Positions 1-64,000 of a DNA stretch of 64,000 nucleotides are shown piece after piece. Location: NCBI GenBank assembly GCA_965202755.1, contig CBDBCL010000008.1:30702-94701 (forward strand), given 5' to 3'. This stretch comes from Rhodospirillales bacterium (lineage in GTDB: Bacteria > Pseudomonadota > Alphaproteobacteria > Kiloniellales > JACOMY01). The number at the start of each line of letters is the position of its first letter. Within the stretch, counting starts at the first letter, position 1. The notes beneath the pieces were generated by a model. That model was not told the DNA's origin. It ran no database searches and worked only from the letters and a program-made list of their open reading frames with translations. A program made the position numbers and the translations under genes.

Positions 1-955
1 TGGCCCGTGCGACGTCCTCCTGCAGCAGAAAGCCTTCCGCCGCCAGCGCCCGCGCGGCTGTTTCGATGGCCGCAGCATAGGCCTCGGCGTTGGGATAGCG
101 TGCCAGCACGCTGCGGCGCGGGTCGCCGGACTGCCGGGTCTCCTCATCGGAGGGGAAGGGCAGGTAGGCCCCGGTGATGCCGATCAACGCGGCTAGGCCA
201 TTCTCCGCGATTCCAGCCGACCGCGGTGCCCAGCGGGGCTTGCACCATCGGTGCCTTGACGCCGGCCAGGTCGAAGCCCTCGGCGTCAAGGCACCAGGAT
301 CGGATAATGCCGGCCGTTGCGTTCGGGTGGATTCACCGTGATCCGACCCTCGCTATCGAAAGCCGGTCCGAAGTCGAGCAGTTCGAGGCCGCTGGGTCCC
401 AGCGGGATGGCGACACCCGGAATTGCCGGGAAGGCGACCCGCCAGTCTTGCATCGTGGCCAGACTGCCGTCGGCCCGGCTGGGAATGCGGCTGGCCGGCG
501 GCGCCTCGCCGCCGCTCGCCCAGCCGTCCAGGTGATCCAGAAGGGCGCGGAAGAAAGCCGAGGTGGCGACCGGATTCTGAAGATGAAGCGCCTTAGATGA
601 AGCGCCTTGCCGTGACTGCCTTCACTCACGCCGGTGGCCGCACCTCGTTGTCCACCAAGTTGTTTATGCCGAGCTTGTTGATCAGCCAGTTGCTGCCCCC
701 GACGGGATCGTCCGACGACAGGCGCAGGGATCGATCGCGACCTGCCCCACTGGGGCCTCTGTCGATCCAGAAGGGCAGGCAAGACATGCTTTCATTCCAG
801 CTCTCGCGGTCTTCGGGGGCCACATGGTCGGTCGCTTTCAGAAAGGTATTGGCAAGATCGACGGGCAGACCGATGACGCCGAGGACGCCCCTGACGGCGG
901 CCTCGCTGGCAGTCGCCGCGTAGTCGGAGAAAGAGTAGTCGTCGATGCGAGCGTC
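1..955 (-). pseudogene. alpha/beta-hydrolase-domain protein remnant (C-terminal part; 3' end runs off the window)
   Basis: Minus-strand translation gives ...GSHGKALHLQNPVATSAFFRALLDHLDGWASGGEAPPASRIPSRADGSLATMQDWRVAFPAIPGV...LDFGPAFDSEGRITVNPPERNGRHYPILVP / LDAEGFDLAGVKAPMVQAPLGTAVGWN / LIGITGAYLPFPSDEETRQSGDPRRSVLARYPNAEAYAAAIETAARALAAEGFLLQEDV. This requires hopping between all three frames (at least 4 shifts; one is the 14-bp duplication at 581-608). Family assignment is from memory. The upstream limit is uncertain. Confidence 0.5.
581..608. repeat. perfect 14-bp tandem duplication AGATGAAGCGCCTT x2
   Basis: Read directly: 581-594 equals 595-608. Deleting one copy restores the reading ...HGKALHLQNPVATSAFFRALL... 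on the minus strand. Confidence 0.95.
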
Positions 956-1098
956 TTTTCGTTTTGTGTCCTGCAGTAGCTGCCTGTTGCCCCGTAATCG
1001 GTCCGGCGCCCGGTTGCCTTGTGAGTGAAACTGGGTCTAAGCGCCGGGCGCCTGGGACGTTACAGACAACGCGGGGCGAATCGTTTCCATTCGGTCGC

Positions 1099-2196
1099 TC
1101 ATTTGTTTGCCTGCATTTCGTTAAATTCCTCTTCTGACGATATCTCTCTATACTCGTCATTATAGAAGAAATCGCTGCCAAAACCGATGATTCCATTATC
1201 CCACGCTTCATTGTATTCCGCCTCGCTTGTGAAAGTGGGCGGTACCTGGGCCAGATAGAGGAAGAACTCGGCTGCATTCAGTCGCCTTGACGCGCTTTTC
1301 CTGGAATCGGCAGTGCTGTTTGGATCTTGCAAGGTGCGGCGCCACTGCTGCATCTGAGATCGCAGTTGTCTGTCGATGGCTCTGAGAGAGCCTCTCAGGC
1401 CCTGGGCGCTTGTGAATATACTGGGCGTGATGTTCAGTTCATCGAGGATGTCGGTCAACTCCGCCTGGGTAAACCTGTCGCCTTGAACGAACACCCTGGC
1501 CAAACCGTAGGCGGCTAAATTCATGAATGTTCTTGCCTCCACAGTGCCTGACATGAAGCCTGTCGCGTCGTCGGACAACTCCCAAAGGGACTTTTCGCCA
1601 GTGGGCAGACGATTGACCTTGTAACGCAGATAGAGACTGGGGGCTGTCGGGTTCAATACCTGTCCAGAGGACCAGCCCTCTTGCGGCTGTGGATCGCTTG
1701 ACGATGGCTGGGGCGCGTTCGGGGACGGGGATCCCGATGGCGCAGACCGCGATGCCTGCGATGCCTGCGAAAGTCCGCCCGCCCTGTCCCTCTGATAATC
1801 CAGAAGCGGGGTTACCGTGACATTATTGGGATTTGTCCTGTTCAGGACTTCGATGCTCTTGGCCCGCAGCGCCTTGCGTCCCTTGGTGCAGGCAAAGACC
1901 TCGGTCCTGATGTTGTTGCCGGTGAGGAAGGCATTGAGTGCGGCCTGGAACATGAGATCGTGGTTCGGCCCGCCCTGTTTGCGCTCGATCCGGATGGTGT
2001 CGACATGGCCGGCACAGGGCAGCTTGTCGCCGGCCGAGGTGACCTCCCAGTTCCCTTCGGCCTTCTGCATCTCGAAATGGCCGTGCTTCACGATAATGCT
2101 TTTGATCGGCGAGGCGTCCGTCGGCCACTCGGCGGCCTGGGCAGAACCCAGCGTCATACAGACCAGAATTCCCGACAGTGCAGCCAGCTTCAACAT
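1099..2196 (-). CDS. orphan secreted two-domain protein (hypothetical)
   Basis: ATG at 2196 preceded by GAGGAGG. N-terminal signal peptide MLKLAALSGILVCMTLGSAQA/AE. About 120-aa domain, then a Ser/Pro/Gln-rich linker (SQASQASRSAPSGSPSPNAPQPSSSDPQPQ), then an about 200-aa C-terminal domain. G+C is visibly lower than in neighbours. I recognise no family. Confidence 0.7.
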   Translation of the reverse strand: MLKLAALSGILVCMTLGSAQAAEWPTDASPIKSIIVKHGHFEMQKAEGNWEVTSAGDKLPCAGHVDTIRIERKQGGPNHDLMFQAALNAFLTGNNIRTEVFACTKGRKALRAKSIEVLNRTNPNNVTVTPLLDYQRDRAGGLSQASQASRSAPSGSPSPNAPQPSSSDPQPQEGWSSGQVLNPTAPSLYLRYKVNRLPTGEKSLWELSDDATGFMSGTVEARTFMNLAAYGLARVFVQGDRFTQAELTDILDELNITPSIFTSAQGLRGSLRAIDRQLRSQMQQWRRTLQDPNSTADSRKSASRRLNAAEFFLYLAQVPPTFTSEAEYNEAWDNGIIGFGSDFFYNDEYREISSEEEFNEMQANK

Positions 2197-2313
2197 CGTG
2201 CCCTCCTCGATCCTCTTGTTCTCGAATGACAGCGAAATCCCCTTTGATGGTGGGATGGTACTGAAGGCATCTGCCGATCACGACCGCTGCAGTGTCCTCA
2301 GTCTGGCTCCGGG

Positions 2314-62397: not shown

Positions 62398-62578
62398 TTG
62401 GCGTTTATCGATAGATGATAACCTAGACTATCGGCGAGGCGTTAGCGGATTTGTTCCCTTGCGTTCCTGGCAATAGTCGAGATCAATCCAGGGTTTGAAT
62501 GGCGTTACTCAGGCATGGCAGCCAGTGAGGTGATCGCATTCACTAAATTCACGCCGACCCAACGGTGCGGTCGGCCCC

Positions 62579-63364
62579 CTAGACAGCCGACAGGCCGCCG
62601 TCGAGCACGATGGCGTGACCTGTCATGAAGGAATTCTCCAGTGAACAGGCCCAGAGCATGGCCTGCACCACCTCTTCGGGCTCGCCGAAACGCCGCATCG
62701 GCATGTTGGAGACGACGCGGTCACGCGCCTCTGCTTCGCTGCCGCCCATCTTCTCGATGAAGTCGGTGACCATCCTGGTCTCGGCGAAAGCCGGGCAGAG
62801 GCAATTGATGCGGATGCCCTTGCGTGCGCATTCGCCGGCCGCCGACTTGGTCAAGCCGACGACGCCATGCTTGGCTGCGGCGTAGACTGATAGCAGCGGC
62901 GCGCCGACCACGCCGGCGACGGAAGCCAGGTTCAAGATGGCACCGCGCCGGCCGGTCTCGGCGAACTGCCGCTCCATCGGCGGGATCTGCGCCTTCATCG
63001 CCAGGAAGACGCCCATGAGGTTGATCGAGACGATGCGTTGGGCTTCCTCCACCGGGATCTTGGCGAGCTTGGCCAGCCTGCCGCCGACACCGGCGTTGTT
63101 GATGGCGACGTCGAGGCAGCCGAATCGCTGCAGCGCGCGTGTCACCAGCGCTTCGGCCTTTTCCCATTCGGAGACGTCACCGGCCAGGACCTCGACCTCG
63201 CTCCCCGCCGCCCTCAGCGGCTGCGCCACGCTCTCCACCGCCTCCCGTTTCAGATCGGAGAGCAGGAGTTTCGCACCCTCGCCGGCGAAGCGCTCGGCCG
63301 CGACTCTGCCGAATCCGCCTGCTGCGCCGGTGATCAGGACCACCGAATCCTGGTAACGCGTCAT
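62579..63364 (-). CDS. SDR family oxidoreductase (FabG-like)
   Basis: ITGAAGGFG, NNAGV, and YAAAKHGVVGLTKS catalytic motif. 261 aa. Confidence 0.9.
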   Translation of the reverse strand: MTRYQDSVVLITGAAGGFGRVAAERFAGEGAKLLLSDLKREAVESVAQPLRAAGSEVEVLAGDVSEWEKAEALVTRALQRFGCLDVAINNAGVGGRLAKLAKIPVEEAQRIVSINLMGVFLAMKAQIPPMERQFAETGRRGAILNLASVAGVVGAPLLSVYAAAKHGVVGLTKSAAGECARKGIRINCLCPAFAETRMVTDFIEKMGGSEAEARDRVVSNMPMRRFGEPEEVVQAMLWACSLENSFMTGHAIVLDGGLSAV

Positions 63365-64000
63365 GCCTGCTGCTCCTCGATGATCTCGATCGCCATGCGC
63401 GCCAGCACCGGAACCGCTGCGCCCATCTTCAGGCCGCGCTCGGGGTTCGAGGCATTGCCGTCCAGCGCGCGCTTCAGCACGCCCTGGATGATGGCAGCCA
63501 GGCGGAAAAAGCTAAAGGCCAGGCAGAAGGTCCAGATCGGAATGCCATCGATACCGCAACGCCGGCAGTAGGCGGCGACATAGTCGGCCTCGGGCGGCAG
63601 GCCATGCCCGCGCCGATCGAGATCGCCAAGGCCGCGGAAGACGCCCTCGTTGGGCAGGCGCCACTGCATGCACTGATAGGCCAGATCCGACCAGGGGTGG
63701 CCCAAGGTCGATAGCTCCCAATCGAGCACACCCAGGATACGTGGCGCTGCGGGAGCAAAGATCATGTTGTCCAGCCGATAGTCGCCGTGCACCAGCGAGG
63801 CTCGCCCGTCATCCTCCGGCATCTCGGCCTCCAACCAAGCGATCAGCCGCTCCATCTCCGGGATCTCTCGCGTCTTGGAGGCCTGGTACTGCTTGGACCA
63901 ACGCGAGACCTGACGGGCGAAGTAACTGCCCGGCCGTCCGAAGTCACCCAATCCGACTGCCGCTGGCTCGACCAGATGCAAGGCTGCCAGGGCTGCGTTC
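63361..64000 (-). CDS. phosphotransferase (APH/acyl-CoA-dehydrogenase-associated kinase-like) family protein, 5' end outside the window
   Basis: ...FARQVSRWSKQYQASK...SLVHGDYRLDNMIF...LGVLDWELSTLGHPWSDL catalytic-loop motifs. The frame stays open to position 64000. Confidence 0.8.
   Translation of the reverse strand, partial: NAALAALHLVEPAAVGLGDFGRPGSYFARQVSRWSKQYQASKTREIPEMERLIAWLEAEMPEDDGRASLVHGDYRLDNMIFAPAAPRILGVLDWELSTLGHPWSDLAYQCMQWRLPNEGVFRGLGDLDRRGHGLPPEADYVAAYCRRCGIDGIPIWTFCLAFSFFRLAAIIQGVLKRALDGNASNPERGLKMGAAVPVLARMAIEIIEEQQA

Follow-up and report, generated by a model that had tools for sequence, protein, structure and literature searches.

Gene-wise clustered lesions suggest accessory genes decaying in place in a 64-kb chromosomal segment of an uncultured Kiloniellales bacterium

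Introduction

When about a third of the loci in a stretch of bacterial chromosome cannot be read as whole genes, are the genes dying, or is the sequence wrong, and if they are dying, what let them go? The question is raised by a 64-kb chromosomal segment (63% GC; contig CBDBCL010000008.1) from an uncultured, marine-type alphaproteobacterium of the order Kiloniellales, here termed the window, i.e. the whole stretch of DNA that was analysed. A first-pass annotation had read it as ongoing genome erosion under relaxed selection, counting 22 broken loci among about 66 (~19 kb, ~50 lesions) next to ~38 kb of clean coding sequence. Our own map of the window, built from Viterbi segmentation and profile searches, gives closely similar figures: 23 broken loci among about 65, covering ~20.6 kb and carrying ~46 lesions, with 37.3 kb intact.

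The lesions arose in this lineage and are clustered by gene. The window is probably a place where accessory genes are no longer maintained and are decaying under relaxed selection; that relaxed selection is the cause, and that the whole genome is affected, is what we infer. Host restriction or some other narrow niche would be our guess at the ecological cause.

Materials and methods

Genes were mapped by codon-usage Viterbi segmentation with frame switches allowed, followed by Pfam and, as a supplement, NCBIfam searches of the frame-stitched translations. An in-gene frameshift was called where a single hidden Markov model (HMM) alignment runs through a frame switch. Loci were termed independently dead if they carry stops, an insertion sequence (IS) insertion, a truncation or larger indels.

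The comparison set consisted of five loci (L081, L082, L083, L164 and L165) from three genomes in ENA ERZ21867824. These related genomes (7.4-7.8 Mb; 84-88% nucleotide identity in shared genes) belong to the same ENA assembly and have consecutive contig names. Searching with the 3-hydroxyisobutyrate-dehydrogenase-like (HIBADH-like) gene found relatives 85-90% identical, on single contigs of 7.40, 7.60, 7.79 and 6.47 Mb; a metagenome scan anchored on folD gave a best relative at 74% and nothing closer. The NrdJ protein of the window is at most 69% identical to that of any GTDB species representative, and all its best matches are alphaproteobacteria. The tree from six intact proteins, ((ctg123373c, ctg123374l), window) with ctg123375l as outgroup, makes the window lineage sister to two of the three relatives. 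Our literature search on pseudogenes of Kiloniellales or Kiloniellaceae and on the ENA accession found no description of the organism.

Results

Broken loci and the origin of their lesions

Colinear homology that continues through frame breaks or stops was found for all 23 broken loci, in single HMM or tblastn alignments (Table 1). The 43 intact genes, with no lesion, make up 58% of the 64 kb; the Viterbi coding fraction in the relatives is 0.84-0.89. Uptake is hit in a Dpp-like ABC importer, a TRAP transporter and a betaine-binding protein, and export in AzlCD and EamA; the other casualties include pyrF, a few enzymes, and one cyclase, one RTX protein and one stress protein.

Between proW and AzlC, and again between HIBADH and nrdJ, the relatives share the gene order of the window, and all of the genes are full length there. 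The three sister genomes keep intact, syntenic orthologs of 12 of the broken genes, among them OpuAC, SBP_bac_5, DppB, DppC, DppD/F, pyrF, AzlD, AzlC and EamA; the mapped lesions, every one of them specific to the window, therefore arose in the window lineage. The broken share of 23 in 65 compares with at most one suspect among the 98 called genes of the relatives' five loci (P = 7e-10), and when every locus with single-base indels only is discounted, 11 of 65 are still broken (P = 2e-4). By the same detector, direct frame switches number 7.3 per 10 kb here and 0.5-3.7 in the relatives. For the TRAP genes, the cyclase, comD/E, PPOX, RTX and Abhydrolase_10 close orthologs were not found, and tblastn with the open reading frames (ORFs) of 163 fetched loci added little for the cyclase, comD/E, PPOX and RTX.

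The sole suspect call among the relatives concerns a diol dehydratase (L082:17200-19472, on ctg123374l), whose large subunit is called in two parts, a 112-aa piece and a 663-aa protein into which the medium subunit also falls. A frameshift or a fusion may lie behind this.

Several of the lesions had been held on first pass to be no homopolymer artefacts, and this is borne out. The four in-frame stops listed then (TAA 50396-98; TGA 26965-67, at a conserved Trp; TAG 26632-34; TAG 38060-62) all lie inside homolog alignments, the 14-bp (581-608) and 15-bp (27334-63) tandem duplications are both present and perfect, and the reported IS insertion with a target duplication and the 5'-truncated stumps (AzlC and dctP) were recovered as well. 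At least 11 loci other than OpuAC, Dpp and pyrF carry stops, an IS insertion, truncations or indels of 2-15 nt. Among the control genes nrdJ, amidase, nitroreductase and LapA, indels are multiples of 3 or do not occur.

Programmed frameshifting or transcriptional slippage was considered as a rescue and rejected: the indels lie at short, unrelated contexts, with up to four per gene. Nor is the window a plasmid or a genomic island, because core genes interleave with the broken ones.

Clustering and age of the lesions

If the 46 lesions were placed at random by gene length, ~30 genes would be expected to be hit; under a conservative grouping 20 are (P(<=20) = 4e-5). The claim of clustered, not random, lesions is upheld by this gene-wise over-dispersion, and none of 200,000 simulations left 37.3 kb untouched. 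The earlier argument that uniform error would not give such a split is valid over the whole window, and weak inside 14.4-22.3 kb alone. Frame-shifting lesions are also 2.9-fold enriched in the independently dead loci, with 15 of 38 falling in 18.5% of the coding length (P = 0.002), a pattern that selection predicts and random error does not. Homopolymer artefacts would be errors in long runs regardless of gene function; the mapped indels sit instead at runs of 1-5 nt, and the 163 runs of >=4 nt and 25 runs of >=5 nt in the intact genes are unaffected.

The lesions span a range of ages, which fits erosion described on first pass as ongoing: (i) OpuAC has a fresh single hit, and its partner genes proV and proW are intact. 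(ii) The Dpp operon and pyrF have many hits and no substitution signal. (iii) EamA, AzlC, the TRAP genes and the IS are diverged or truncated. (iv) A stump or lost-neighbour class comprises the dioxygenase stump together with TauD and YccV, for which no match was found anywhere in the window.

A first inactivating hit would lift selection from a gene or operon. Afterwards ordinary mutations would pile up in it (single-base slippage indels, nonsense substitutions, deletions at microhomologies, short tandem duplications, insertion of an IS, truncations linked to rearrangement), and the same mutations in neighbouring core genes would be purged by selection.

A rearrangement junction with a dead IS1380-family element

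The densest damage lies at 21.8-27.8 kb, where GC is only 0.56, at a lineage-specific synteny break beside the IS. Here the 5'-truncated azlC and dctP genes abut head to head, together with the TRAP remnant and the IS-split universal stress protein gene (usp). The AzlC match is limited to residues 157-230 of the 231-aa ortholog. DctM gives two Pfam stretches, the better one covering positions 109-413 of 413. The block from Dpp to AzlC sits 5.7 kb ahead of the block from HIBADH to nrdJ (junction region 21765-28996), whereas in both sister genomes the HIBADH block comes ~300 kb before the Dpp block, i.e. in the opposite order (L082, L083, L164 and L165 compared). The adjacency of the two blocks in the window is a lineage-specific rearrangement and not a simple deletion. 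After HIBADH all three relatives have a YccV-RND-MgtE block; in the window this place is taken by the TRAP remnant, the IS and the usp gene that it splits.

Next to the junction, the 3' end of dctP and the 5' end of dctQ occur in two copies, which give substance to the diverged segmental duplication claimed earlier. Between the copies of this 365-bp duplication there are four indels, of 1, 15, 9 and 1 nt, and two substitutions. The 15-nt and 9-nt deletions are natural events because they are flanked by microhomology. This excess of indels over substitutions suggests an indel-rich neutral spectrum in the lineage, as does the Dpp operon with its ten indels. The tandem MlaD pair (29829-30756) was also tried as a segmental duplication and rejected: all three relatives have both paralogs, so the pair is ancestral and no lesion. 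Its members are ~31% identical to each other and belong to a cluster, NDUFA12-MlaD-MlaD-hyp-DUF2155, that is conserved in all three relatives.

The usp gene is split by an IS. Ahead of the insertion Pfam Usp matches at 3-106 of 141, and once the IS and one TTAG copy are taken out, an ORF is restored that runs on to a C terminus typical of Usp proteins. IS1380-family elements have a DDE_Tnp_1_4 transposase, terminal inverted repeats, a target duplication of 4-5 bp and a length of ~1.6-2 kb. These traits are found here, with a PF13701 (DDE_Tnp_1_4) transposase that is colinear with an intact 450-aa IS1380 transposase and imperfect 13-bp inverted repeats (CCGGGATTATTCA and CCCTGATTATTCA); related plasmid copies are annotated IS1380. 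Copies of the family on Bradyrhizobium and Sphingobium plasmids (ISBdi2-like) share the transposase type, the 1.68-kb length, inverted repeats starting CC and the 4-bp duplication; the window copy differs in being dead and only 64-65% identical in nucleotides to known copies. It must be immobile on its own because its transposase gene has two frameshifts, two stops (the TAG at 26632 and the TGA at 26965) and a 15-bp tandem duplication (27334-48/27349-63) that amounts to an in-frame insert of five codons.

Such a setting could make the window a local oddity, an accessory, rearrangement-prone region in a genome with a normal pseudogene load of a few percent and no change of lifestyle. The position of the densest damage at the synteny break would suit this, as would intact genes that are neither accelerated nor shifted towards AT, and genomes of >=7 Mb carry many redundant transporters. 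We consider it quite unlikely, because broken loci are scattered over at least seven sites along the 64 kb (near 0-1.3, 9.1, 14-27.8, 31.3-32.2, 36.3-38.4, 49-52.6 and 61.3-62.4 kb), interleaved with the core genes nrdJ, guaB, ddl, folD, ccm, HU and rsmB; pyrF, itself a core biosynthetic gene, is among the broken, and the relatives' five loci, from the same neighbourhoods, contain at most the single suspect already described.

Loci with only single-base indels and the missing marks of long-term host restriction

OpuAC, the four Dpp genes and pyrF form a class apart, since all 14 of their indels are exactly 1 nt and they have no stops and no larger indels. In OpuAC (a glycine-betaine-type substrate-binding protein) the Pfam match, 2-256 of 257, crosses the frame switch, and the indel was mapped at the nucleotide level; the pseudogene is 89% and 82% identical, in two frames, to the intact 322-aa ortholog of L083. 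SBP_bac_5 gives one Pfam stretch, 2-366 of 368, over four frames, and was placed in a three-way nucleotide alignment with intact 528-aa orthologs. DppB is 94-98% identical in three frames to an intact 318-aa ortholog; in DppD/F the second ABC_tran domain is one stretch over three frames, and after reconstruction the whole protein shares 90-92% identity with intact orthologs of 552 aa. The Pfam OMPdecase stretch of pyrF crosses a frame switch, and three frames are needed to align the gene with the intact L082 ortholog of 232 aa.

Several observations weigh against decay under relaxed selection. Aligning pseudogenes with intact orthologs, the check proposed on first pass for counting indels against substitutions, yields exactly ten single-base indels in the Dpp operon (seven insertions and three deletions, from three-way nucleotide alignments), all lineage-specific, and nothing else. 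Substitutions specific to the window vs the sister number 83 vs 67 at codon positions 1+2 (P = 0.22) and 234 vs 230 at position 3, in a test with ctg123375l as outgroup and low power against the 16% background divergence; the GC-to-AT bias is unchanged, and GC3 equals that of L082. Indels and substitutions usually occur at a ratio of ~1:10. Roughly 100 extra substitutions would be expected in Dpp at that ratio; the best estimate is ~20, with ~85 at the outside, so that the ratio of indels to substitutions lies well above 1:10. Either the mutation spectrum is unusually indel-rich, or some of the indels are consensus errors. The lesions at 14.4-22.3 kb fit a uniform process of ~2 per kb, and the three intact genes within this interval could escape by chance (P ~0.03-0.16; 0.026 in the local test).

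The intact genes add to these objections. Their proteins are not accelerated (72 changes on the window branch vs 64-70, in six proteins and 2112 columns), GC has not shifted towards AT (0.632 vs 0.627-0.660 in the relatives), and there is no IS expansion, the one IS1380-family element in the 64 kb having a dead transposase. The searched collections hold a single assembly of the organism, hence no independent sequence. A substitution signal of relaxed selection, the cause proposed on first pass, is seen in EamA, whose branch is accelerated (34 singleton changes in the window vs 5-11 in the sister genomes), and not in the Dpp operon.

The single-base indels of OpuAC, Dpp and pyrF are thus either very recent or partly consensus errors. 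We keep as an alternative a mixed picture, because these 14 indels lack a substitution signal: the heavily damaged loci would be real pseudogenes, and OpuAC, the four Dpp genes and pyrF (perhaps also PPOX, comD/E and RTX) would be intact genes with errors from thinly covered or unpolished long-read stretches, leaving a true pseudogene share of ~17-20%. Eleven of the 14 are insertions that duplicate a neighbouring base, and the reconstructed proteins are 88-98% identical to intact orthologs, equal to or better than their intact neighbours (68-80%). The lesion spacing at 14.4-22.3 kb is compatible with a regional uniform process (P = 0.026), and the contig names of the relatives are typical of long-read metagenome assemblers, so the window could be the same type of data. 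The source contig, however, is only 144 kb, a size that suits short-read assembly better, and indel errors are rare in such data. Clean stretches run for 4-13 kb; damaged patches, the shortest of 1.1 and 3.3 kb, end within ~300 bp of gene borders; frameshifts go with otherwise dead loci, the long homopolymers of intact genes are untouched, and the neutral 365-bp duplication makes an indel-rich natural spectrum plausible. On balance we regard the mixed picture as unlikely.

The same spectrum, in the Dpp genes and in the duplication, bears on what drives the decay. Erosion might be real and genome-wide yet not caused by host restriction: a raised indel rate (e.g. after mismatch repair was lost) could be responsible, and/or a severe bottleneck, in a population that lives free or in loose association. 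There is no long-term small-population syndrome, since amino-acid branch lengths are equal and GC is unchanged, and the carnitine and dimethylglycine catabolic clusters and the full ccm system are intact, all of which would agree with such a history. The casualties are mainly uptake and export, signalling and surface proteins, for which a narrowed niche fits equally well, and the loss of pyrF implies dependence on external pyrimidines; we hold this account to be somewhat improbable. Decay in place of accessory genes that are no longer maintained is the explanation we favour.

The intact set comprises dimethylglycine dehydrogenase, a choline-kinase-like gene, proW, proV, DeoR, SDR, amidase, nitroreductase, HU, LapA, HIBADH, DUF2155, two MlaD, NDUFA12, nrdJ, RidA, guaB, rsmB, a carnitine-type cluster (42838-47937), ddl, folD and ccmA-I. 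Every indel in nrdJ is a multiple of 3. The 336-nt leader (32157-32492) of this B12-dependent gene has no Rfam match to a cobalamin riboswitch at gathering score, nor has the whole window any Rfam match at that score; no tRNA genes were found in the 64 kb. That guaB is intact, as had been claimed, agrees with our count, with the correction that its 588-aa ORF (38171-39937) is inflated: the IMPDH domain starts near 38490, and the ~100 codons upstream are the tail of an in-frame, hydrolase-like pseudogene.

Other broken loci

Of the 429 positions of Pfam PF20091, the Abhydrolase_10 remnant matches only 300-426, spread over frames -0, -2 and -1. Its neighbour, an ORF of 365 aa (1099-2196, minus strand) whose 3' end abuts the remnant, has a signal peptide and a Ser/Pro-rich middle; it belongs to no Pfam or NCBIfam family. 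EamA gives two Pfam stretches in two frames, and the intact orthologs of three relatives, 289 aa long, likewise align in two. At the position of the dioxygenase stump, the relatives have TauD or RidA. The hydrolase-like gene ahead of guaB has a weak Abhydrolase_6 match, and a 274-aa protein of L165 (beside RidA, on ctg123375l) aligns at 37613-38332, in one frame through the TAG, with 29% identity.

Against an Ochrobactrum replicon, tblastn of the stitched PPOX-family protein gives one unbroken piece (residues 10-180, 52% identity). The cyclase (Pfam Guanylate_cyc) is colinear by tblastn with homologs of ~580 aa, in two or more frames and with the TAA inside the alignment; further shifts and stops lie in its C-terminal third. 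For comD/E the NCBIfam beta model matches at 1-181 of 182, one stretch across the switch, and the alpha model at 89-158 of 160; the same adjacent pair of decarboxylase alpha and beta genes occurs in Methylobacterium plasmids. In a three-frame read of the RTX locus the repeat units carry on from frame to frame. In one relative, at least seven genes of ~405 aa stand in tandem behind the Dpp operon (L083:12253-21659, on ctg123375l), and the first copy has RTX-like repeats; the RTX pseudogene of the window matches only the repeat units.

Table 1. Broken loci, duplications, the IS element and intact comparators in the window
Feature	Coordinates	Strand	State
Abhydrolase_10-like remnant	1..1278	-	C-terminal part of domain alone, in several frames
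Perfect 14-bp tandem duplication	581-594/595-608		AGATGAAGCGCCTT twice, inside the hydrolase remnant; shifts frame
OpuAC (glycine-betaine-type substrate-binding protein) pseudogene	8914..9862	-	one +1 near 9139
SBP_bac_5 (Dpp-like substrate-binding protein) pseudogene	14108..15698	+	four +1: 14414, 14901, 15115, 15593
DppB-like permease pseudogene	15893..16847	+	two -1: 16416, 16673
DppC-like permease pseudogene	16857..17684	+	-1 at 17003, +1 at 17539
Fused DppD/F ATPase pseudogene	17699..19359	+	+1 at 18751 and 18823
pyrF (orotidine monophosphate (OMP) decarboxylase) pseudogene	19845..20548	-	three +1: 20377, 19941, 19873
AzlD pseudogene	21765..22070	-	+1 at 22013; first ~20 codons unrecognisable
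AzlC 3' remnant	22061..22300	-	5' 433 nt deleted; one +1 and one -1 in the rest, at 22159 and 22279
TRAP DctP remnant	22302..23147	+	N-terminally truncated, two frame switches; Pfam DctP 16-283/286 over three frames
Segmental duplication, dctP 3' end and dctQ 5' end	23072..23930	+	365 bp; copies 23072-23434 and 23589-23930
TRAP DctM	24287..25584	+	N-terminal quarter fragmented over two other frames; remaining 344-aa ORF open
Universal stress protein gene, split by IS	25699..27900	+	5' part to 26101, 3' part from 27784
Dead IS1380-family element	26102..27783	+	1682 bp; target duplication TTAG (4 bp)
HIBADH-like gene	27986-28855	-	intact
EamA/DMT transporter pseudogene	31326..32164	+	+2 frameshift near 31600; 10-nt gap/indel near 31345
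nrdJ, class II ribonucleotide reductase	32499..36158	+	intact comparator; 88% identical over 1218 aa to relatives
Ectoine-hydroxylase/PhyH-type dioxygenase stump	36314..36481	+	56 codons, after nrdJ; NCBIfam TIGR02408 195-240/277 only
Hydrolase-like gene	37478..38365	+	in-frame TAG 38060-38062; tail in frame with guaB upstream region
PPOX-family flavoprotein pseudogene	49054..49628	+	one frameshift near 49189
Class III adenylate cyclase with TPR repeats, pseudogene	49631..51386	-	frameshift near 50800, in-frame TAA 50396-50398
Sulfopyruvate/phosphonopyruvate-decarboxylase-like alpha and beta genes (comD/E)	51411..52580	-	each split by a frame switch
ccmABCDEFGHI cytochrome c maturation cluster	54262..60885	-	intact comparator; expected Pfam domains, no in-domain frame breaks
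RTX calcium-binding repeat protein pseudogene	61285..62400	-	about five frame switches; five Pfam HemolysinCabind stretches

Discussion

The pattern in the window matches the early stage of reductive evolution known from Sodalis glossinidius, the weevil symbiont SOPE and Serratia symbiotica, a familiar process in a new lineage. Sodalis has 972 pseudogenes in 4.2 Mb with a coding density of 51%, S. symbiotica 550 in 2.8 Mb with 60.9%, and SOPE 1194 in 4.5 Mb (PMC3851785). Common to these systems and the window are many genes inactivated by frameshifts, stops and IS with free-living relatives intact, a low intact coding density (~58% here) with tens of percent of pseudogenes (for the window only), multi-hit pseudogenes, transporters and surface or signalling genes over-represented among the casualties, and at least one rearrangement. 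Unlike them, the window has no IS expansion, no protein acceleration and no shift in composition; they are also gammaproteobacterial, whereas the window is only 64 kb of a Kiloniellales chromosome at 63% GC.

A further system for comparison is Candidatus Endolissoclinum faulkneri, a tunicate endosymbiont and alphaproteobacterium whose nearest sequenced relative is a 6.1-Mb free-living marine alphaproteobacterium; its coding density is 57% and it lacks mutSLH (PMC3851785, where Kiloniellales are mentioned). An alphaproteobacterial identity, a large-genomed nearest sequenced relative and low coding density are shared with the window. E. faulkneri, however, is at a late stage: very few of its pseudogenes can still be recognised, its intergenic DNA is degraded, its gene inventory is small and its GC content is far below that of its free-living relative, whereas the window would be at an early stage, most of its pseudogenes being 60-98% identical to intact orthologs.

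Whichever reading holds, automatic gene calling will break up or miss about one locus in three here, and apparent metabolic gaps, e.g. in pyrimidine synthesis, hinge on whether the 14 single-base indels are real. Genuine insertions in pyrF, normally a core gene for making pyrimidines, would leave the organism dependent on an external supply unless another copy of the gene exists elsewhere. What has been kept and lost gives hints of the niche: carnitine and dimethylglycine catabolism, cytochrome c maturation and the class II ribonucleotide reductase remain, and peptide and TRAP uptake, the betaine-binding protein, AzlCD and EamA export, the cyclase, RTX and pyrF are lost.

Tentatively, the window may record the very onset of dependence on a host or partner, an indel-dominated decay, possibly after loss of mismatch repair, that would be removing uptake systems and even pyrF and would precede AT drift, faster protein evolution and an IS bloom. 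It might then be a rare high-GC alphaproteobacterial counterpart to the Sodalis model, one with intact sisters for exact dating of the losses. If the lesions are confirmed and prove genome-wide, they would be a snapshot of early erosion in a clade where only the late-stage E. faulkneri has been described, and the three near-complete sister genomes would let the losses be polarised and roughly dated.

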